Positions 6,251 to 28,832 of a stretch of DNA of 32,000 nucleotides are shown here, piece by piece. The stretch is from Halomicrobium mukohataei DSM 12286. GTDB taxonomy: Archaea > Halobacteriota > Halobacteria > Halobacteriales > Haloarculaceae. Within the stretch, counting starts at the first letter, position 1. The number at the start of each line of letters is the position of its first letter. Location: positions 1,170,001-1,202,000 of the forward strand of contig NC_013202.1 of assembly GCF_000023965.1 (NCBI RefSeq), read 5' to 3'. The translations under genes were made by a program, and so were the position numbers. The notes under the pieces were generated by a model that saw only the letters and a program-made list of their open reading frames with translations, was not told the origin of the DNA and did no database searches.

Positions 6251-7495
6251 ATGAGTCACAGTGAGACAGAGGCCCTCGACGTCGAGTCCATCCGGGACGA
6301 GTTCCCGATCCTCGACCGGGAGTTCGACGGAACGCCGCTCGTGTACCTCGACAACGCGGCGACGAGCCAGACGCCGGACCAGGTCATCGACTCGATCAGT
6401 CACTACTACCGACACTACAACGCCAACGTCCACCGCGGCCTCCACCAGCTGAGTCAGGAGGCCTCGATCGCCTACGAGGAGGCCCACGACCGGGTCGCGG
6501 AGTTCATCGGGGCGAGCGGCGGGCGCAAAGAGGTCGTGTTCACGAAGAACACGACGGAGTCGATGAACACGGTCGCCTACGCGTGGGGGCTCGCCGAGCT
6601 GGGCCCCGGCGACGAGGTCGTCCTCACGGAGATGGAACACCACGCCGCGCTCGTGACCTGGCAACAGATCGCCAAGAAGACCGGCGCGACGGTGAAGTTC
6701 GTGGAGGTCGACGAGGACGGACGCCTCGACATGGACCACGCTCGCGAGCTGATCACCGACGACACCGAGATGGTCAGCGTCGTCCACGTCTCGAACACGC
6801 TGGGGACCGTCAACCCCGTCTCCGAGCTGGCCGACATCGCCCACGATCACGACTCGCTGATCTTCGTCGACGGGGCGCAGTCGGTGCCACACATGCCCGT
6901 CGACGTGGAGGCCATCGACGCGGACTTCTTCGCCTTTTCGGGCCACAAGATGTGTGGTCCGACCGGCGTCGGCGTCCTCTACGGCAAAGAGCACCTGCTC
7001 GACGCGATGCAGCCGTACCTCTACGGGGGAATGATGATCGAGAAGGTGACCTTCGAGGACTCGACGTGGCACGAACTCCCCTGGAAGTTCGAGGCCGGCA
7101 CGCCGGTCATCAGCGAGGGGATCGCACTCGCCGAGGCCTGTGACTACCTCGATTCGATCGGGATGGAGCGCGTCCACCGCCACGGCACGGAACTGGCGGC
7201 GTACGCCTACGACCGCCTCCAGGAGTTCGACGACATCGAGATTCTGGGGCCGGGCGGCGACGAACGGGCCGCGCTGGTCTCGTTCGACATGGACAACGTC
7301 CACGCCCACGACGTTTCGGAGATTCTCAACGCCAACGGCGTCGCCGTCCGCGCGGGCGATCACTGTACGCAGCCGCTACACGACAAGCTCGGCGTCTCCG
7401 CGTCGACGCGGGCTTCGTTCTACATCTACAACACTCGCGAGGAAGTGGACGCGCTGGTCGACGCACTCGATCAGGCCCGCGAGCTGTTCGCGTAG
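6251..7495 (+). CDS. sufS: Cysteine desulfurase, SufS type (class V aminotransferase)
   Basis: 414 aa with a PLP-lysine motif (FSGHKMCGPTGVG) and a catalytic Cys motif (RAGDHCTQP). Confidence 0.9.
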   Translation: MSHSETEALDVESIRDEFPILDREFDGTPLVYLDNAATSQTPDQVIDSISHYYRHYNANVHRGLHQLSQEASIAYEEAHDRVAEFIGASGGRKEVVFTKNTTESMNTVAYAWGLAELGPGDEVVLTEMEHHAALVTWQQIAKKTGATVKFVEVDEDGRLDMDHARELITDDTEMVSVVHVSNTLGTVNPVSELADIAHDHDSLIFVDGAQSVPHMPVDVEAIDADFFAFSGHKMCGPTGVGVLYGKEHLLDAMQPYLYGGMMIEKVTFEDSTWHELPWKFEAGTPVISEGIALAEACDYLDSIGMERVHRHGTELAAYAYDRLQEFDDIEILGPGGDERAALVSFDMDNVHAHDVSEILNANGVAVRAGDHCTQPLHDKLGVSASTRASFYIYNTREEVDALVDALDQARELFA

Positions 7496-7497
7496 CG
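7429..7497. repeat. Direct repeat copy A: last 65 nt of sufS, including the stop codon, plus 2 nt
   Basis: 69/69 nt identical to 7683..7751 (caacactcgcgaggaagtggacgcgctggtcgacgcactcgatcaggcccgcgagctgttcgcgtagcg). Confidence 0.97.
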
Positions 7498-7682
7498 GAC
7501 GAGCATCCGCGCCATAGGCGCGGTTCACCGGTCCGACTGCAGGAGGTCCGGCGTTTTTCGCCCACGTTCGCAAGAGCGCCGCTCTTGCGAGCTCATCAGA
7601 GATCGAAGATTTCTGAGGACGTTTTTGCGCAAGCGGTTCGCGAGTACAGCGAGCGAACCCGCAGAGCAAAAAGGTGGTCTCG
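7498..7682 (+). repeat. Structured intergenic repeat element, copy 1 (plus orientation)
   Basis: Blocks in order:
- GC hairpin at 7507-7523 (ccgcgcc-ata-ggcgcgg).
- TTTTTCGCCCAC.
- Palindrome at 7569-7589 (cgcaagagcg-c-cgctcttgcg).
- Long hairpin module at 7622-7672 (TTTTTGCGC..GGTTCGC-loop-GCGAACC..GCAAAAA).
The block order matches the element at 15306-15464. Confidence 0.8.
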
Positions 7683-7751
7683 CAACACTCGCGAGGAAGT
7701 GGACGCGCTGGTCGACGCACTCGATCAGGCCCGCGAGCTGTTCGCGTAGCG
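7683..7751. repeat. Direct repeat copy B: orphan copy of the sufS 3' end
   Basis: Perfect 69-nt copy of 7429..7497, located 254 bp downstream and not attached to any gene body. Confidence 0.97.
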
Positions 7752-11172: not shown

Positions 11173-11389
11173 CTCCCGCTCGCCGCTTCCGAGGGCCGTG
11201 ACTCACTCCGTTCGTCACGCCCCTCGCTGCTCACGTGTCGTTCACTTCATTCGCTCCCGCTCGCCGCTTTCGAGGGCCGTGACTCACTCCGTTCGTCACG
11301 CCCCTCGCTGCTCACGTGTCGTTCACTTCATTCGCTCCCGCTCGCCGCTTTCGAGGGCCGTGACTCACTCCGTTCGTCACGCCCCTCGC
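11173..11389. repeat. 81-bp tandem repeat, about 2.7 copies, carrying the element core hairpin (minus orientation)
   Basis: GTGACTCACTCCGTTCGTCAC recurs at 11198, 11279 and 11360 (period 81). The copies differ at one position (c/t in cgccgctt[c/t]cgaggg). The array ends 45 nt before the RFC start codon. Confidence 0.95.
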
Positions 11390-11434
11390 GCGCATCCGGA
11401 AAATCCATACCCGTCGCTGGCCAACGACGATTCG

Positions 11435-13286: not shown

Positions 13287-15305
13287 ATGAAACGAGAGCC
13301 GCCACAGACCGAAGAGGGCTGGTACGTGTTGCACGACCTGCGCCACGTCGACTGGGACGCCTGGCGGGCGGCCCCCGAACGGGACCGCGACCGAGCGTTG
13401 ACCGACGGGATCGACTATCTGGAGTACTTCGAGGCCGTCGAGGACAGTTCGGAGGGGCAGTCGGCGGTCTACACCGTGCTGGGCGACAAGGCCGATCTCA
13501 TGATCTTGCACCTGCGGCCGACGATGGCCGACCTGGACGCCGCCGAGCGGCAGTTCGAGCAGACCGAGTTCGCCCGCTACACCGAGCAGGCCACCTCCTA
13601 CGTCTCCGTGACGGAGGCCTCGGGCTACACCGAGAAGGCCCGCGAGTACTTCGACGGCGAGGTCGACGACGACTCCGGGCTGGCACAGTACATCCAGGCC
13701 CGTCTACACCCCGACATCCCCGACGAGGAGTTCGTCTGCTTCTACCCGATGAGCAAGCGTCGCGAGCCGGACCAGAACTGGTACGACCTGCCCTTCGCCG
13801 AGCGGGCCGAACACATCAAGCGCCACGGTGACATCGGCCGTCAGTACGGCGGCAAGGTCGAGCAGATGATCGCCGGCTCGATCGGCTTCGACGACCACGA
13901 GTGGGGGATCACGCTCTGGAGCGACGACATGACCCACGTCAAGGACCTGCTGACTCAGATGCGCTTCGATCCCTCGACCTCGAAGTTCGCCGACTTCGGG
14001 CGCTTCTACGTCGGTCGCCGATTCGCGCCGTCGGACCTGCCGGCGATGATGAACGGCCAGCGCGTCCCGTCCGCGGGCGCGAACGCATCGGGAGCGACGA
14101 CCGACGGACGCGCCCAGCCCACCGACGGAGACCATCCCGGTACCCGCGAGACCGCGACGGCCGGCCAGTCCGGCGACGCGGGCAGTCACGGCGGCGTCCA
14201 TCCGGGCAGTTCCGCCGAGGGCGACCACCCCCACGACGGCGGCGACGTGGCCAGCCGAGACGGGGAAGCCGACGAGGCGAGCGAGAGCGGCGACGGCCAC
14301 CCCGATGGCGGCGGCCGTCCAGACCCCGGTGACGCGTCCTACGAGGAGACCGACGACCTCGCACAGCGCCTCGCCACGATGGGGCTGTCCGAGGGCGAGG
14401 ACTACGACGCTGGCGACTACGGACTGCTGTTCTACTCGGAGAGCGACGCCGAGGCACTGGCCGACGAAGTCGCGGATCTCCGGGAGAGCTTCGACCACTA
14501 CGACCGCCACGTCGCGACGACCGTGCGCGCCCAGAGCGGCCGGGCGGCCGTCGTGAGCATCTGGACCGCACAGGAAGCCGCCGAGACCGCCGCCGGGTTC
14601 CTGGGCGACGTGTCCGGGGTCAGCGACACCTACGGGGGCCGCCTCGGCGAGGGAGCCGCCGACGAGCCCGAGCCGACGACGGCGAACTCCAGCGAGGAGA
14701 TCCAGCAGCAACTTGCCGATGCAAACGTCTACGCCGGACAGCCGAACGGAGAGGACGTGTTCGCGCTGGTGCTGTACTCCGAGGCCGACCCCGAGACGCT
14801 GTCTACCGAAGTGACCGAGCTCACGGAGAGTTTCGATCACTACGACACACACGAGGGCACTGCGGTCTACGAGGCCGGCGAGCCCCTCGACGCCGCGACG
14901 GCGGACGCCGACCAGCCCCGAGCGGCCGTCGTCAGCCTCTGGGAGACCCAGAGCGCCGCCGACACGGCGAGTGGCTTCCTCACCGACCTCCCGGGGATCG
15001 TCGGCCGCCCCGACGAGGGCGACGGTTTCGGCACGATGGGGATGTTCTACACCGTCGAGCCGGACCACCGCGAGGAGTTCGTCGAGACCTTCGACGAGGT
15101 CGGCGAGCTACTCGACGAGATGGACGGCCACCGAGAGACGACGCTGCTGGCGAACCGCGACGACGTGAACGACATGTTCATCGCGAGCCAGTGGGACAGC
15201 AAGGAAGACGCGATGGCGTTCTTCCGGTCGGACGAGTTCGCCGAGACCGTCCAGTGGGGCCGAACAGTGCTCGCAGACCGTCCTCGGCACGTCTTCCTCG
15301 CCTGA
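13287..15305 (+). CDS. Chlorite dismutase-like (HemQ/Cld family) domain fused to a C-terminal ABM monooxygenase-like domain (PitA-like), with a long acidic insertion
   Basis: The N-terminal about 250 aa are Cld-like (WYVLHDLRHVDW...FYPMSKRR...RHGDIGRQYGG...). The C-terminal about 95 aa form an ABM fold (GMFYTVEPDHREEFVETFDEV...FIASQWDSKEDAMAFFRSDEF). About 300 aa of D/E/G/H-rich linker plus two internal repeats lie between them. An alternative start exists at 13248. Confidence 0.8.
   Translation: MKREPPQTEEGWYVLHDLRHVDWDAWRAAPERDRDRALTDGIDYLEYFEAVEDSSEGQSAVYTVLGDKADLMILHLRPTMADLDAAERQFEQTEFARYTEQATSYVSVTEASGYTEKAREYFDGEVDDDSGLAQYIQARLHPDIPDEEFVCFYPMSKRREPDQNWYDLPFAERAEHIKRHGDIGRQYGGKVEQMIAGSIGFDDHEWGITLWSDDMTHVKDLLTQMRFDPSTSKFADFGRFYVGRRFAPSDLPAMMNGQRVPSAGANASGATTDGRAQPTDGDHPGTRETATAGQSGDAGSHGGVHPGSSAEGDHPHDGGDVASRDGEADEASESGDGHPDGGGRPDPGDASYEETDDLAQRLATMGLSEGEDYDAGDYGLLFYSESDAEALADEVADLRESFDHYDRHVATTVRAQSGRAAVVSIWTAQEAAETAAGFLGDVSGVSDTYGGRLGEGAADEPEPTTANSSEEIQQQLADANVYAGQPNGEDVFALVLYSEADPETLSTEVTELTESFDHYDTHEGTAVYEAGEPLDAATADADQPRAAVVSLWETQSAADTASGFLTDLPGIVGRPDEGDGFGTMGMFYTVEPDHREEFVETFDEVGELLDEMDGHRETTLLANRDDVNDMFIASQWDSKEDAMAFFRSDEFAETVQWGRTVLADRPRHVFLA
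15255..15305. repeat. Diverged direct repeat copy A: last 16 codons plus stop of the pitA-like gene
   Basis: Encodes WGRTVLADRPRHVFLA*. Pairs with 15465..15515. Confidence 0.85.
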
Positions 15306-15464
15306 GAACGGCCACGAGTGACGCGAGTGGCCGCTTTTTCGCCACCGGGAGAGCAAGCTCTCCCGAGCCCACACTCGCTTTGCTCGCGTGGACCGCGTTT
15401 TTGCGCGAGGGTTCCCGCAACGAACGGAGTGAGTGAAGAAACCCGACGCGGAAAAAGGAGGAGT
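15306..15464 (+). repeat. Structured intergenic repeat element, copy 2 (plus orientation)
   Basis: Blocks in order:
- Hairpin at 15310-15332 (ggccac..gtggcc) followed by T5 at 15335-15339.
- TTTTTCGCCAC.
- Palindrome at 15346-15365 (cgggagagc-aa-gctctcccg).
- Hairpin module at 15398-15456 (TTTTTGCGCGAGGGTT...CGAACGGAGTGAGTGA...AACCCGACGCGGAAAAA). Confidence 0.8.
15310..15339 (+). terminator. Possible transcription terminator (GC hairpin followed by T5)
   Basis: ggccac-N11-gtggcc, then gcTTTTT, beginning 5 nt after the stop codon. Oligo-T tracts are the known archaeal termination signal. Confidence 0.4.
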
Positions 15465-15515
15465 TGGGGGCGGACGGTGCTGACCGACCGTCCGCGCCAC
15501 GTCTTCCTAGCATAG
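15465..15515. repeat. Diverged direct repeat copy B: orphan 3' end encoding WGRTVLTDRPRHVFLA*
   Basis: 39/51 nt identical to copy A. The differences are almost all third-position synonymous, and an in-frame stop is retained (TAG versus TGA). Confidence 0.85.
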
Positions 15516-15593
15516 CGAGGGGGCACCACGGTCACTCTAACCGCGTTTTGAGCGACGGAACGTACTTTGTCGGTCGAGGCGGTGCGTGCGTGT

Positions 15594-18083: not shown

Positions 18084-19084
18084 AACGCTCTTGTGAAGCA
18101 CGTTGTTGATTTTCAGAGTGCGGCGTTGAGAGCATGTTTGAGTGCTTCGTCACCTGGTTTTCTGTAGAGTTCACGGCGGAGTTCGAAGGCTCTGAGATAC
18201 GGCGTTAGCTTGTCTTTCGAGACGCCTCGATGGGGGCGAGAGCCACCGTCGCGTCAGCGACGCGTGGCTCTCGCAGCCGTTGACGTGTACTTCGCCATCA
18301 GCGTATTCACCGTCGCTGTGGACGACGTATTTGCGGGTGAATGAGTCGTCGTCTTCTAGTGGGTCGTAGGCCCGAAATCCGTCCGTATAGACGGTCAGTG
18401 ACTCCTCTTCGTGGTCAGCAAGCAGGAGTCGAACGGTCGATTCGTCAGCGGATTTCGCTGGCACGACGTACCGCTCGTCCGAACCACGATCGACGAGCGT
18501 GAACACCGGCGGTTTGTCGCCGTCGTACGATCCCCGTCCACGCGTGGACAGGCCACGCGAGCGCGACTCCTGGTCACGCTCGCGGCCTTTGAGACCAGCA
18601 GAGACGTACACTTCGTCGATTTCGACCGGTCCAGACAGCGTAATCGAAGGCGCGTCGAGAGTTCTGGCGAACTGCTCGACGTGCCGTCTCACCGTCCGGT
18701 AGGAACAATCAAGCTCTGCCTCGATTTGCCGAATACTCGTGTTGAACCGTAAGAACACGTAGATCGTGAAGTACCATTCTTTGAGCTTCAGCTTCGAGTG
18801 AGCGAAGATCGTGTCGGTCTTGTCGTTGAACGTGCGACCGCAATTCTTACACAGATACCGTTGATACACCCGGTAGCTGCCGTTTCTGACCGTCAGGTCA
18901 GAACGGCAGCGGGGGCACTCGACGCCATCACGCCAGCGAACCTGTTCCAGCAGGTCCGCTGCAGCCGATTCCGACACGAACCGGCTTATTGGGAACATAT
19001 CGGGCACCGCTAGCGCGGTGCCCTTGCCCTCTTCGACTTTCAGCTCCAGCCATCGCTATCAACAATCTCCTTCGCAAGAGCGTT
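18084..19084 (-). mobile_element. IS1595-family insertion sequence (ISH4-like size, about 1.0 kb)
   Basis: Imperfect terminal inverted repeats: AACGCTCTTGTGAAGCACGTTGTTGAT (left) versus the reverse complement of the right end, AACGCTCTTGCGAAGGAGATTGTTGAT. It encloses a transposase gene. I found no matching target-site duplication. Confidence 0.85.
18113..19007 (-). pseudogene. IS1595-family transposase, interrupted by a 1-nt frameshift in a C5 run
   Basis: N-terminal zinc ribbon (CPRCRS...CKNCGRTF) and a DDE core. The ORF-track reading ends ...RRWLSPPSRRLERQ.... Removing one C of the run at 18232-18236 restores ...WLSPHRGVSKDKLTPYLRAFELRRELYRKPGDEALKHALNAAL*, ending at 18113. Confidence 0.8.
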
Positions 19085-20327
19085 GAGCTCTTTTTCCCGG
19101 TTTTCAGAACACTTCACCGCGGAGCTGAAATGCTTGGAAATACGGTGTACGCTCGTGTGAAGCACGTTGTTGGTAAATCAGAGGACGGTTCGAACGATTT
19201 CTTTGAGCGCTTCTTCACCGGGTTTGCGTAGGATTCGTCAGCGAAGTTGGAATACTCTGAGATACGGCGTCAGTTTGTCTTTGGAGACTCCTCGCAGGTA
19301 TTCACGTGTGCGTCTCCATCCACGTATTCACCCTCGCTGTGAATGACCGCTTCTCGCTGGTAGTGCTCGTCGTCTTCGAGTGGATCGTACGCTCGAAATC
19401 CATCAGTATAGCTGGTTAGCGACTCTTCCTCGCAGTCGCCGAGGAGGAGTCGCACGGTCGATTCGTCAGCGGATTTCGCCGAGACAACGTAGCGCTCACC
19501 CCTGCCACGATCGACCAACGTGAACACCGGTGGTTTGTCACCATCGTACGATCCTCGTCCACGCGTGGACAGACCACGCGAGCGCGACTCTTGATCGTGC
19601 TCGTGGCCCTTCAGCCCCGCAGTCACGTAGACTTCGCCGATTTCGGCCGGGCCAACGAGGCTGATGGCTGGCGCGTCGAGCGTTCTGGCGAACTGCTCGA
19701 CGCGCCGCCATAGTGACCGATACGAAACGGGGAGTTCAGCGTCCAACTGGTGGATACTCGTGTTGAACCGAAGAAACGAGTAGAACGCGAACAAGAGCTT
19801 GTCGGGAGCTTGTCCTCAGCGTATGTTCCACGTCCGCTCGTGAACAGGTCGCACTCGTGGCCCTTGAGACCCACTTTCATGTAGAACTCGTCGGTCTTAA
19901 CGGGGCTTTCGAGGTATGGTTGAGGCAAGCGCGTTCAGCGCTTGCAGGAAGCGCTGACACGCCGGTGGACCGTCTTGTAAGAAACGTCAATTTCTGCGTC
20001 TAGCTGCCTGAGACTCGTGTTCAAGCAGATGTGGATGTAGACGGCGAGAACTCACTTTCTGAGCGCGACCGTATAGTATTCGAAGATTGTGCCAGTCTGA
20101 TCGTTGAATGTGCGGTCGCAATTATCCCATAGAAGCTCTGAAACACTCGATAACTGCCGTACCGAATCACAGATCGGCACAGTAGCGTGGGAAATAGGCC
20201 GTCGCGCCGAGACGAACGCCTTGATTGGCATCATCGTTTGTCGGGTGATACGGTCACGTCACCCTTGCCTGCTGTGACTTCCAGTTACTGGTGAGAACTG
20301 ACCAACAATCTTCTACCCAAGAGCGTC
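19085..20327 (-). mobile_element. Mosaic of degraded IS1595-family copies (at least two)
   Basis: Components:
- 19085-19148: C-terminal remnant (TPYFQAFQLRGEVF*KPG).
- About 19149: a second left IR (ACGCTCGTGTGAAGCACGTTGTTGG).
- 19270-19794: truncated transposase core.
- 19800-20234: a more diverged copy with stops (NTSLRQLDAEIDVSYKTV..., CDRTFNDQTGTIF).
- About 20303-20327: right IR (reverse complement ACGCTCTTGGGTAGAAGATTGTTGGT). Confidence 0.75.
19270..19794 (-). pseudogene. IS1595-family transposase fragment lacking the zinc-ribbon N-terminus, with a C-terminal deletion and frameshift
   Basis: 174 aa, closely similar to residues about 80-250 of the 18171-19007 ORF (FLRFNTSI.Q..AEL..SYR...R.VEQFARTLDAP...GLKG.E.DQESRSRGLSTRGRGSYDGDKPPVFTLVDRG). 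It ends abnormally after VNTCE. The downstream frame has an internal stop (QLR*RILRKPG). Confidence 0.8.
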
Positions 20328-26317: not shown

Positions 26318-26730
26318 TCGGTGTCGATGGGTGCGCCGTCCTCGGTCGGCGGTGCGATGGCGTCGATGAAGGCCTCGGCCGACGGCTCGGTCACGCGCAC
26401 CTGGACGTGGATGTCCCCGAGCTCTGCGGGCCCGCCCACCGAGAAGTTGATCCGCCCCTCGAAGGCCGCCTGCTTGTTCAACTCGAATGTGAACGTGTCG
26501 TCGTCGAGCGTGTCGAAGAAGACGCCCCGGGCCGTGTCGAGGATCTCCTCGCGGTGGAGCAGCTCCGAGACGTGGCTCATGTCGTGACACTCCGCGACGA
26601 TCTGGTCGCCCTCGTAGCTGGGATCGGCCGTCGGGAAGATGTTCGTGACGGCGTCGGCGACCCGATCCGTCACCTCGGTGTCGTGGACCGGCGCAGTTAC
26701 CCGCACGTCGACGCTGTAAACCGCGCTCAT
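26314..26730 (-). CDS. UPF0201/DUF54-like putative RNA-binding protein
   Basis: 138 aa (VRVTAPVHDTEV...FTFELNKQAAFEGRINFSV...). Its size and pairing with a UPF0200-type P-loop protein match the conserved archaeal gene pair. Confidence 0.65.
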   Translation of the reverse strand: MSAVYSVDVRVTAPVHDTEVTDRVADAVTNIFPTADPSYEGDQIVAECHDMSHVSELLHREEILDTARGVFFDTLDDDTFTFELNKQAAFEGRINFSVGGPAELGDIHVQVRVTEPSAEAFIDAIAPPTEDGAPIDTE

Positions 26731-27317
26731 GCGTCCCCCTCCGCGGCGTCGTACTGGCTCCGGTAGGCGTCGATGCCGTCGGCCAGCAGCGTCCGCACCT
26801 TCGACTGGAACGCCTCCAGACTGTCGGTGTTGTCGATGTGTACGTCGGCCCGTTCCATGGCCGCGTCCATTCCGAAGCCTCGCTCGCGTTCGTCGCGCTC
26901 TTCGAGGGATTCACCGCCGTCGTCGCGATCGCCGTCTCGGCCCCGTTCTGCCAGCCGCGCTTCCCGGACCTCGAACGGTGCCTCGATGCTGACCAGCGAG
27001 AACGACGCCCCGAACGCCTCCTCGAAGGCGTCGACCTCCACGTCCGACCGGACGCCGTCGACCAGCACCGCGTCGCTCGACGCGAGCTCGTCTTCGATCA
27101 GCGGGAGCGACCGCTCGGCGATGGCCGCCGGCCCGTTCTCTTCGCGAAGCGCCGTCGCCACGCGGCCGTGCTCGGTCGCCGGATCCAGCCCGCGGTCCCG
27201 ACACTCCGCACGGATCACGTCTCCCATCGTCACGACCGGCACGTCCAGCTCGCGGGCGACGTTGGCGGCCTCGCCCTTGCCGCTGCCCGGTAGCCCGACC
27301 GTCGCGAGTACTCTCAT
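26727..27317 (-). CDS. UPF0200-type P-loop NTPase / nucleotide kinase-like protein
   Basis: Start at MRVLATVGLPGSGKGEA (Walker A). Adenylate/dephospho-CoA kinase-like fold and an acidic C-terminus. ATGA overlap with the downstream gene. Confidence 0.7.
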   Translation of the reverse strand: MRVLATVGLPGSGKGEAANVARELDVPVVTMGDVIRAECRDRGLDPATEHGRVATALREENGPAAIAERSLPLIEDELASSDAVLVDGVRSDVEVDAFEEAFGASFSLVSIEAPFEVREARLAERGRDGDRDDGGESLEERDERERGFGMDAAMERADVHIDNTDSLEAFQSKVRTLLADGIDAYRSQYDAAEGDA

Positions 27318-27369
27318 GGTGCTGGGATAGTCGCAGCCGTCGCTTAAGCACTGTGCTCCACCCGCGACA

Positions 27370-27450
27370 GCAAGCATATACCTGCCCGCGATCTACCGCA
27401 GACTATGGCTCAACGCTCTCTGGTCGTCTGTGCTCTCTGGTTCGTCTTCG
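27370..27450. repeat. Direct repeat copy A: orphan copy of the yccF-like promoter plus the first 46 nt of its CDS
   Basis: Aligns with 27574..27654 at an offset of 204. It includes the TATA-like catata (27375-27380) and an ATG at 27405, which opens a 39-codon decoy ORF (MAQRSLVVCALWFVFDDRFPRR...*, stop at 27522-27524). Confidence 0.9.
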
Positions 27451-27573
27451 ACGACCGTTTTCCGCGTCGGGTCTCCTCGCTCGCTCCGCTCGCTGCGGGG
27501 ACCCTCGCGCAAAACCGTCGATGAAAAAGGCAGCCACTCACTCCGTTCGTGGCTGATGCTGCTCTCCTCGCCC
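27451..27573 (-). repeat. Structured intergenic repeat element, copy 3 (minus orientation, short form)
   Basis: Read as the reverse complement:
- GAGCAGCATCA.
- Hairpin gccac-GAACGGAGTGA-gtggc (27533-27553), followed by CTTTTTC.
- Hairpin module GTTTTGCGCGAGGGTC...GACCCGACGCGGAAAAC (27458-27514).
It lacks the central palindrome block of copies 1 and 2. Confidence 0.8.
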
Positions 27574-27654
27574 GCAAGCATATACCTGCCCGCGATCTAT
27601 CGCCCGACATGGCTCAACGCTCGCTGGTCGTCCGTGCTCTCTGGTTCGTCTTCG
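27574..27654. repeat. Direct repeat copy B: functional promoter and 5' end of the yccF-like gene
   Basis: Differs from copy A at only 2 positions within the 46 coding nt (one synonymous, one Cys/Arg). Several more changes lie in the about 15 nt before the ATG. Confidence 0.9.
27579..27584 (+). promoter_or_regulatory. TATA-like box for a probably leaderless yccF-like transcript
   Basis: catata is centred about 27 nt upstream of the ATG at 27609, the spacing expected for haloarchaeal leaderless mRNAs. An identical box lies upstream of the decoy ATG at 27405. Confidence 0.35.
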
Positions 27655-27986
27655 TCGGCTGGTGGCTCACGCCGATTCTGGTCAACGTCGCGTGGCTGTT
27701 GAACGTTACCGTGATCTTGCTTCCGTTCGGGATCAAGCTCATCAACCTCGTCCCGACGGCGCTGACGCTGGCCGAACCCCGATCGCTGGCCGAGGGAACC
27801 GGCGCGTCACAGCCGTCGCTCGTGGTGCGGGCGATCTACTTCGTGCTCGTGGGCTGGTGGCTCTCGTGGCTGTGGGCCAACGTCGCCGCCGCGCTGTCGA
27901 TGACGATCGTCGGCATTCCGATCGCGATCTGGCTGTTCAACCGGCTTCCGTACGTCACGTCGCTGTACCGATTCCACGGGCGATAG
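27609..27986 (+). CDS. YccF-like (DUF307) inner membrane protein
   Basis: Two internal repeats of the YccF motif (RALWFVFVGWWL... and RAIYFVLVGWWLSWLW...GIPIAIW). Confidence 0.8.
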   Translation: MAQRSLVVRALWFVFVGWWLTPILVNVAWLLNVTVILLPFGIKLINLVPTALTLAEPRSLAEGTGASQPSLVVRAIYFVLVGWWLSWLWANVAAALSMTIVGIPIAIWLFNRLPYVTSLYRFHGR

Positions 27987-28832
27987 CTACCGCTCGCGGA
28001 CGACGACGAACTCCGCCAGATCCTGCAGGTACTCCGTCGCCTGGCTGTCGTCGGTGTCGACGGTCGCGAGCGCTTCGAGCGCGGCGTCGGACTCCGCGCG
28101 AGCCCGTTCGTTGGCCTCCGCTGGCGTGAGATCGGTCACCTCGACGAACGAGGGGCGGTCCATCTCGGCGTCCTGGCCGGCGGGCTTGCCCAGTTTCTCC
28201 GCGTCGGCCGTCGCGTCGAGCACGTCGTCGCGCATCTGGAAGGCGACGCCGACCCGCTCGGCGTACTGGCCGAAGGCTTCGACCGTGTAGGCGTCGGCGT
28301 CGGCCGCGATCGCGCCCAGCTCCGCCGCCGCCCGGAACAGCGCGCCGGTCTTCCGGCGGGCCAGCTCGATGTACTCGGTCTCGTTGGTCGGTTGGCTGAC
28401 GAGCTCGGTCGCTTCGCCCTCGCCGAGTTCGACCATCGACTCGGTCACGGCCTGCATGGCTCGCTCGTCGCTGGAAAAGAGTGCGAACGCTTCGCCGAGC
28501 AGCCCGTCGGAGGCGATGATGGCTGGCCCGTGGCCGAAGGCCGCCCACGCCGAGGGCGTCCCGCGACGCACGTCGGACTCGTCGATGATGTCGTCGATCA
28601 CCAGCGAGGCGTTGTGGACCAGTTCGATCCCGACCGCGAACTCCACCGCGTCGGCGGGCTCTCCGCCCAGCGCCTCACAGACCAGCACCGTCACTGTCGG
28701 CCGAACGCGCTTCCCTCCGGCCAGGGCCACGTGGCGGACTTCGTCGGCGAGTTCGTCGGGTTCGACCCCGTCGAGGACGGCCTCCAGCCGTTCCTCGACG
28801 CGGTCCCGACGCCGCTGTAAGTACTCCATCAT
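27987..28832 (-). CDS. idsA: Polyprenyl diphosphate synthase (geranylgeranyl diphosphate synthase type)
   Basis: First aspartate-rich motif LVIDDIID and second motif MRDDVLD. KRVRP near the N-terminus. The symbol is tentative. Confidence 0.85.
   Translation of the reverse strand: MMEYLQRRRDRVEERLEAVLDGVEPDELADEVRHVALAGGKRVRPTVTVLVCEALGGEPADAVEFAVGIELVHNASLVIDDIIDESDVRRGTPSAWAAFGHGPAIIASDGLLGEAFALFSSDERAMQAVTESMVELGEGEATELVSQPTNETEYIELARRKTGALFRAAAELGAIAADADAYTVEAFGQYAERVGVAFQMRDDVLDATADAEKLGKPAGQDAEMDRPSFVEVTDLTPAEANERARAESDAALEALATVDTDDSQATEYLQDLAEFVVVRER

Follow-up and report, generated by a model that had tools for sequence, protein, structure and literature searches.

A probable long target duplication around a non-coding, hairpin-rich element inserted in a yccF-like gene of Halomicrobium

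The promoter and 5' end of a yccF-like gene occur twice, as direct repeats of 81 nt, on either side of a short hairpin element in the window (the whole 32,000-nt stretch of Halomicrobium mukohataei DSM 12286 analysed here). We consider it fairly probable that the repeat is a long target duplication, produced when a non-coding, hairpin-rich, terminator-like element was copied in 46 nt inside yccF.

Read base by base, positions 27370-27450 and 27574-27654 are direct repeats of 81 nt with 8 mismatches. A repeat search of the window returned the pair as 92 nt (27362-27453 and 27566-27657, 87% identity, spacing 204), and BLAST of the window against itself aligned the 81-nt segments at 92.7% identity over 82 columns (E = 1.4e-26). 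All three agree with the preliminary description, which had placed an 81-bp segment twice, 204 bp apart, around the third copy of the element. Each repeat carries a TATA-like CATATA box 30 nt ahead of an ATG (boxes at 27375-27380 and 27579-27584, ATGs at 27405 and 27609), a spacing that we take to fit the TATA box of a leaderless mRNA, and 46 coding nt fall within the repeat, as that description had held. It had also named two coding differences, one synonymous (TCT/TCG) and one exchanging Cys and Arg (TGT/CGT), together with greater divergence just before the ATG. Direct reading recovered both: of the eight mismatches, six fall after the TATA-like box and ahead of the ATG, and the other two are coding. 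The upstream, orphan copy keeps box and ATG and opens the short reading frame that had been assigned to it. An A/T-rich box at the equivalent distance (-30 to -24) is kept in all nine aligned sequences, all relatives included.

The yccF-like protein is identical in CP045142.1 (a 3.09-Mb Halomicrobium chromosome in GenBank) and in three independent read-set assemblies. The arrangement of repeat, element and repeat is present in these four and in H. katesii, five independent assemblies in all, which rules out an assembly artefact. Given this recurrence and an E value of 1e-26, chance or artefact as the origin of the repeat is excluded.

Table 1. Positions in the window of the duplicated target, the inserted element, the neighbouring genes and the other family copies.
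Feature	Position	Strand	Remarks
Orphan target copy (yccF promoter, ATG 27405 and first 46 coding nt)	27370..27450	+	opens a 39-codon ORF, 27405-27524
Functional target copy (promoter with CATATA 27579-27584, and yccF 5' end)	27574..27654	+	
yccF-like gene	27609..27986	+	125 aa, PF03733, intact
Divergent AAA-kinase-like gene	26727..27320	-	start region outside the duplicated segment
Polyprenyl synthetase gene (idsA), convergent with yccF	27987-28832	-	stop abuts the yccF stop, no spacer
Hairpin element copy 3, truncated family member	27451..27573	-	123 nt, inserted 46 nt inside yccF
Core palindrome of copy 3	27455..27517	-	T4/T5 and A-runs at the base of the long hairpin
T5C motif GCCTTTTTC	27524..27528	-	no other minus-strand T5 run from the idsA stop (27987) to the kinase operon
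Family copy 1	7429..7751	+	185-nt element at 7498-7682; more divergent match at 7610-7679
Family copy 2	15253..15516	+	element at ~15307-15462, after a chlorite-dismutase-like gene

An empty site, sought in the upstream regions of relatives as the preliminary description had proposed, was found at seven loci and links the duplication to the element. At these loci the target is single, the element is missing and the sequence is exactly 204 bp shorter than in the window (an alignment gap of 204 columns); the 204 bp consist of the 123-nt element and one 81-nt target copy. Kinase gene and yccF are 87 nt apart in Halomicrobium sp. HM KBTZ05 (L005) and in a different H. mukohataei assembly (L007) versus 291 nt in the window, and four further empty loci from two metagenome lineages (L037-L040) have a spacing of 83-84 nt. 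The outgroup, H. salinisoli (L008), is likewise without the insertion; in the alignment it shows, as do L005 and L007, one copy and no element. In H. katesii DSM 19301, the sole return of a genome-collection scan with a strict pattern, the site is filled by the same element at the same position. The orphan copy joins native upstream sequence, identical in relatives. Since the seven empty loci lack element and duplicate alike and H. katesii has both, element and second copy come or go together; among the eight lineages examined, none has the element without the duplicate at yccF. By parsimony, the window's Halomicrobium strain and H. katesii would have inherited the insertion from their common ancestor. 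A perfect empty site could also be recreated if the two copies recombined, so the direction of the event rests on parsimony, with the seven empty loci, the outgroup included, as its basis.

The inserted element is non-coding, and the segment duplicated around it is derived from the target. On the minus strand it reads 13 nt, AGCATC, hairpin-1 (CAGCCAC-GAACGGAGTGA-GTGGCTG), GCCTTTTTCATCGA, the core palindrome CGGTTTTGCGCGAGGG...CCCGACGCGGAAAA and CGGTCG. The 123 nt fold as two strong hairpins (-56.3 kcal/mol, z = -3.4) and match the family profile with 65 bits (nhmmer, E = 1e-18). Copy 3 had been called inverted and indeed is, 63 nt of it being 86% complementary to 15396-15458.

The family follows a canonical order of one or more hairpins, GCCTTTTTCGCCCA, a long palindrome CGTTTTTGCGCGAG...GCGGAAAAA and then GGTGG. 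Longer copies show a full unit of ~170-190 nt, made up of AGCAT, a large hairpin, TTCACC, hairpin-1, GCCTTTTTCGCCCA, the core palindrome and GGTGG, and at six loci this unit closes, on the right, a longer composite (400-540 nt) that holds further conserved blocks. Hairpin-1 has a variable stem around the loop GAACGGAGTGA, and the core has an inner stem of variable length and sequence. In the alignment of the metagenome loci GCCTTTTTCGCCCA before the core and GGTGG after it are near-invariant though both lie outside the scan pattern. The right end of the element lies at the base of the long palindrome, ...GCGGAAAAAGGTG(G).

Three copies of the family lie within the window, and a pattern scan of public metagenome contigs gave 23 loci at different genes, several of them within one sample. 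BLAST of plasmid records (PLSDB) found pieces of the element in Haloferax, Haloarcula, Natrinema, Natronorubrum, Halorussus and others, always unannotated; on Haloferax alexandrinus pBNX82-3 the element lies behind a gene's stop codon, flanked by a 40-nt repeat containing that stop. The core pattern had no match in 2.9 million viral contigs, and a virus or provirus origin of the family was rejected on this basis. Rfam at gathering thresholds returned no RNA family from the window or ten related loci except tRNAs, and no tRNA was found in the window itself. The literature searched, including by conserved motif strings, yielded no description of the element family or its duplications, and on NmIRS and HqIRS it yielded only Haloquadratum elements without such duplications; its coverage is incomplete, and novelty is thus unproven.

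To score duplications, 300 nt left of the core were aligned with 170 nt right of the core for each copy. Long direct repeats were present at 11 of the 22 scored copies, which represent nine distinct sites, with scores of 24.5-101.5; random positions in the same DNA gave a median of 10 and a 95th percentile of 14. The duplicated stretches measure ~32 (L033), 43 (L021), 45 (L017), 53-66 (L036), 69 (SufS in the window), 81 (yccF), 88-90 (L030) and 109-110 nt (L023). Each of the three window copies lies between direct repeats of the end of its neighbouring gene. Copy 1 lies between two stretches of the SufS 3' end, stop codon included, that are 100% identical (7429-7497 and 7683-7751). Copy 2 combines a long core with a decayed duplicate of the 3' end of the chlorite-dismutase-like gene (~47-55 nt, 81%). 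At the same gene the H. katesii core is short and the duplicate, of ~84 nt, almost identical to its partner, and Halomicrobium sp. IBSBa has hairpin-1 and the T-run only. Roughly half of the copies, for the most part full-length or composite, lack a detectable duplication, L021 and L032 carry A-E-A-E-A arrays, and the right-hand copies in L023, L033 and H. katesii contain part of the element itself.

At all duplicated sites but yccF the stop codon of the left gene is inside the repeat, and yccF is the only duplicated site at a gene 5' end; the duplication process is therefore not limited to 3' ends, as had been proposed. The companion proposal, that it copies whatever terminus lies on one side of the element, was right about polarity, the gene body lying left of the element at all nine duplicated sites. 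What is copied is better described as ~30-110 bp of target duplicated around the insert. We infer that insertions survive only where their duplication rebuilds a gene end, or between genes, so that gene termini are what is seen.

The right end is also where the duplicates are anchored: at every duplicated site the right copy immediately follows ...AAAAAGGTG(G) and starts -3 to +5 nt relative to where the profile match ends. The left end varies, starting at AGCAT, at hairpin-1 or inside the T-run, or carrying additional hairpins or modules. A fixed right end with a variable left end argues for polar copy-in rather than for a classical two-ended transposase. Where the target already had a hairpin and then a T-run, the junction falls in the T-run, and at L030 and the chlorite-dismutase-like gene of H. 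katesii the T-run junction rebuilds the canonical order of hairpin, T5 and core. Microhomology at the exit junction, read by eye, is inconsistent, with 6 nt in L036 (AAGGTG) and weak or absent matches elsewhere. Copies with a co-directional left gene have their core 22-115 nt from its stop codon; in a second class, which lacks duplications, the right end directly adjoins a convergent gene's stop codon or a tRNA gene's 3' end. The polarity could come either from selection for terminator orientation or from a polar copying mechanism.

Our preferred guess is copy-in through template switching during DNA synthesis. A nascent 3' end would leave the target and enter a donor element at a variable point, often by T-run microhomology. 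The nascent strand would then copy rightwards to the palindrome end, where it would be released as the new palindrome folds back, and would re-anneal to the original template ~30-110 nt behind its point of departure, so that this stretch is copied twice. Polar copying of this kind is favoured by the fixed end at the palindrome end, the entry by T-run microhomology and the duplications of tens of bases. A length of 30-110 bp lies within the range of archaeal Okazaki fragments. The partial element within the right-hand copies of L023, L033 and H. katesii calls for an element already partly in place beforehand, or else for a different course in which local tandem duplication is followed by loss. 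A dedicated enzyme may also play a part.

The main rival, which we hold to be unlikely, is a trans-acting transposase that inserts the element as a MITE, cutting 30-110 nt apart so that fill-in of the overhangs duplicates the target. The inconstant left ends weigh against such a route, and so does the apparent lack of terminal inverted repeats in the whole element, although the inverted arms of the core could act as ends and the duplication here does adjoin the insert and vary in length. IS1549/IS1634, with long and variable direct repeats of 8-514 bp, provide a precedent, yet most members of the IS1634 family duplicate 5-6 bp (PMC2266710). No IS with matching ends was seen in the window or the fetched loci, and the one transposase gene in the window is of the IS1595 type.

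A history in two steps seems to us still less plausible. Here the element would have inserted outside the gene without duplication, slippage or unequal exchange provoked by the palindrome would later have copied the left flank to the right side in a tandem duplication of flank and element, and the second palindrome would have been lost. The family has features that suit this course: the gene body left of the element at every duplicated site, left-hand element sequence inside some right-hand copies (L023, L033, H. katesii), full A-E-A-E arrays in L021 and L032, and many copies without duplication. At yccF, however, the orphan (right-hand) copy ends exactly at the ancestral junction, the intermediate with an element and no duplicate is absent from the eight lineages examined, and two or three events are needed where one is enough.

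Gene conversion homogenises the two copies of a duplication, which evolve in concert. In the stretch from the TATA-like box to the ATG, CCTGCCCGCGATCTA stands in both copies of the window strain and CCGCTTCGTGATCTA in both H. katesii copies, and five differences between the window strain and H. katesii are common to both yccF copies within each species. As the insertion predates the split of the two, the yccF copies have been homogenised. Likewise, in the related L023 and L026 a polymorphism (GAGAGCTG/GAGAACTG) is swapped between left and right copies. The SufS duplicates are identical in the window and 97% identical in L023, gene ends differing by ~14-20% between organisms, which suggests that the SufS duplication is old and has been kept alike by conversion. 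Window and L023 clearly share a homologous left part of the element at SufS; homology of the right flank of the duplication is marginal, its score being reached by 15 of 500 shuffles, and we therefore put forward an ancestral SufS duplication as likely and no more. With conversion possible at SufS, the identity of the two copies does not date the event. The orphan yccF copy has Cys for a conserved Arg and six changes ahead of the ATG, all missing from the gene copy and from all relatives, as would be expected of a copy without constraint.

Without the duplication, the insertion would sever yccF from its promoter and first 15 codons. Downstream of the element, the duplication restored promoter and 5' end intact, and yccF thus survived, with an orphan promoter and 15 codons left upstream. 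Judged by its sequence, the orphan promoter probably still fires. On its strand the T-runs before yccF amount to a single T4 (T4C, 27458-27461), one T short of the T5C motif that terminated 95% of transcripts in Haloferax volcanii (PMC7237163). Because T4C is a weakened T5C, a short RNA and read-through into yccF are both possible, and a firing orphan promoter would be expected to give a mix of a ~55-nt RNA and a yccF mRNA whose 204-nt leader includes the 39-codon upstream ORF.

T5C motifs lie beside hairpins on both strands of the element, GCCTTTTTC and CCACCTTTTTCC both being present, and the family copies hold 7 of the 17 runs of at least five T or A in the window. Relatives without the element have no run of at least four T between the idsA stop and the kinase operon. 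The only co-directional gene upstream of copy 3 is idsA, 460 nt away across yccF. It is possible that the T5C of the element ends idsA read-through running antisense across yccF, and such a terminator or insulator role would fit the family's usual place behind stop codons. The yccF locus itself is a tolerated insertion. That the orphan promoter is instead a selected decoy start driving transcription of the element, in an arrangement that exists to regulate yccF or to express the element, is very improbable: its TATA-like box and ATG are intact in the window, the box is kept at -30 to -24 in all relatives and only a T4 lies ahead on that strand, but the orphan copy gathers changes absent from the gene copy (the six before the ATG and Cys for Arg), close relatives do without it, its 39-codon ORF is mostly element sequence, and the same kind of duplication occurs at 3' ends with no promoter involved.

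Three further routes were rejected. An integrase/att model is excluded, as the duplicated sequence is target-specific and different at every locus and the element has no coding capacity. CRISPR/Cas1-type or casposon-type integration, whose duplications have a fixed length (that of the repeat, or 14-15 bp), was set aside, and the insert sizes do not fit it either. Rolling-circle, one-ended transposition of the IS91-like kind was set aside too, since it makes no duplication and its far end is extended, not shortened.

The yccF locus alone is of more modest interest: the orphan promoter may add a transcript with a long leader, and the T5C may shield the kinase operon from transcripts that read through from idsA. 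What is of interest is the family, terminator-like palindromes that on insertion duplicate 30-110 bp at many genes. It is conceivable, though we hold it with some doubt, that Halobacteria possess mobile palindromic 'terminator cassettes' bearing T5C, which enter by a polar and probably replication-coupled copy-in, have no transposase of their own and duplicate 30-110 bp per event; hits inside gene ends would be tolerated, new terminators and orphan promoters seeded, and the duplicates kept alike by gene conversion in polyploid cells. If true, this would be a route by which T-poor, GC-rich haloarchaeal genomes gain terminators. Should the family picture hold, it would offer a sequence-defined system for how very long, variable target duplications arise, a question open since IS1549/IS1634. 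It would also account for annotation oddities such as duplicated gene ends, spurious short ORFs (of 39 and 62 codons here) and orphan promoters, and the duplicates would be natural gene-conversion reporters in polyploid archaea.

Among known systems, REP/BIME/REPIN elements and the PATE and SMR elements of Haloquadratum resemble the element in being extragenic palindromes, often at gene 3' ends, mosaic, and possible terminators or stabilisers. REP elements, to our knowledge, make no target duplication, and palindromes of the REP and PATE type insert beside a short target motif and depend on IS200/IS605-type Y1 enzymes. PATE and SMR are without target duplication as well (PMC3119063), whereas 11 of 22 scored copies of the element are flanked by long duplications. 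SINEs and non-LTR retroposons share with it variable target duplications, a fixed 3' end, 5'-truncated copies and an occasional disturbed junction. Unlike these, the element has no A-rich or other RNA 3' tail (it ends ...AAAAAGGTGG), no transcript is expected to end at GGTGG, and no reverse transcriptase is known to take part. Furthermore, the yccF duplicate includes promoter DNA that is not transcribed and is therefore not RNA-derived.

Haloarchaeal MITEs (HqIRS of Haloquadratum) are, like the element, small, non-coding, multi-copy, intergenic and present in some strains only, and the three window copies and 23 metagenome loci do lie at unrelated sites. MITEs have terminal inverted repeats matching an IS and a short duplication of fixed length (PMC3119063). 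The element differs in its duplications, which vary from 32 to 110 nt, and in a left end that is not fixed; its core is a long palindrome (CCCACGTTTTTGCGCG / CGCGGAAAAAGGTGG), but the inserted unit, from AGCAT... to ...GGTGG or truncated, has no matching ends. With T5C terminators, which stand downstream of a gene and often have a hairpin upstream, it shares a T5C beside hairpins, and most copies stand directly after stop codons. Such terminators are normally not repeats conserved across genera with flanking duplications, as the element is, and copy 3 departs from the usual terminator by lying in a divergent promoter region and not behind a gene on its own strand. IS1549/IS1634 show the feature seen here, long direct target duplications of variable length, for which there is no mechanistic model, and the IS1634 family is frequent in Euryarchaeota (PMC2266710). 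They measure 1.5-2 kb and have a DDE transposase and two defined ends, whereas the element is 60-190 nt long and non-coding, with one fixed and one variable end. In the literature searched, IS1549/IS1634 are the only documentable prokaryotic precedent for long variable duplications.

The convergent yccF and polyprenyl synthetase (idsA) genes of the window abut end to end with no spacer, and no T-run was found at their junction on either strand. Judged from the sequence, each of the two transcripts must extend antisense into the other gene, unless it would be stopped by non-canonical signals. The same junction in two metagenome relatives (L037 and L039) contains a fold-back element, ~250-300 nt in length, whose inverted ends are long (ACCGAAAGCCCTCGGCGCGCT...). 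We compared its left arm with the 400-540-nt composites, runs of conserved blocks that all end in the hairpin element (loci L014, L016, L019, L022, L027 and L031), and found it to be homologous to their leftmost block.

At four distinct sites (L014, L015, L024 and L027) a convergent gene has its stop codon no more than ~5 nt from the right-hand GGTGG end of the hairpin element, suggesting a tighter proximity than chance insertion would be expected to give.

The site behind the chlorite-dismutase-like gene is shared by the window's strain and H. katesii (L041), whose chlorite-dismutase-like proteins are 98% identical. The cores differ strongly: one is short, and the other is long and carries two additional hairpins. 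The flanks on either side of the cores are common to both. Both lineages have a destroyed T-run in their right-hand duplicate. On Haloferax alexandrinus pBNX82-3 (L011), the orphan and gene copies of a duplicated gene end differ by six substitutions, all of them transitions; at the same site in a metagenome relative (L030) the duplicate is far longer (88-90 nt) and cleaner.

A long-arm tRNA gene of 82 nt, a putative tRNA-Ser, has its final 22 nt duplicated ~150 nt downstream in L022 and L031, and the duplicates bracket a further hairpin insert with the loop GAACGGAGTGAG. In a third locus, L028, the tRNA immediately adjoins the element and the insert with this loop is absent.

Two further repeats lie in the window. 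A pair of ~600-nt segments, 80% identical and 1021 nt apart, overlaps a gene whose product has zinc-ribbon and DDE domains of the IS1595 type. Ahead of an RFC-like gene stand three tandem 81-nt units, the third divergent in its last 27 nt; every unit contains a hairpin on the minus strand, GAGGGGCGTGAC-GAACGGAGTGA-GTCACGGCCCTC, whose loop motif is shared with the element's hairpin-1.

Coordinates of the features described, in the window or in the fetched loci (L-numbers)
Feature	Sequence	Position
yccF/idsA junction	window	27986/27987
Fold-back element	L037	1920-2228
Fold-back element	L039	1922-2168
Site behind chlorite-dismutase-like gene	window	15306-15530
Site behind chlorite-dismutase-like gene	L041	3519-3800
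Duplicated gene end	L011	1146-1299
tRNA gene and duplicate	L022	3648-3902
tRNA gene and duplicate	L031	9030-9285
tRNA adjoining element	L028	156-304
Paired ~600-nt segments	window	18085-19707
IS1595-type gene	L001	506-1390
Gene end before tandem units	window	11101
Tandem 81-nt units	window	11173-11415
RFC-like gene start	window	11436
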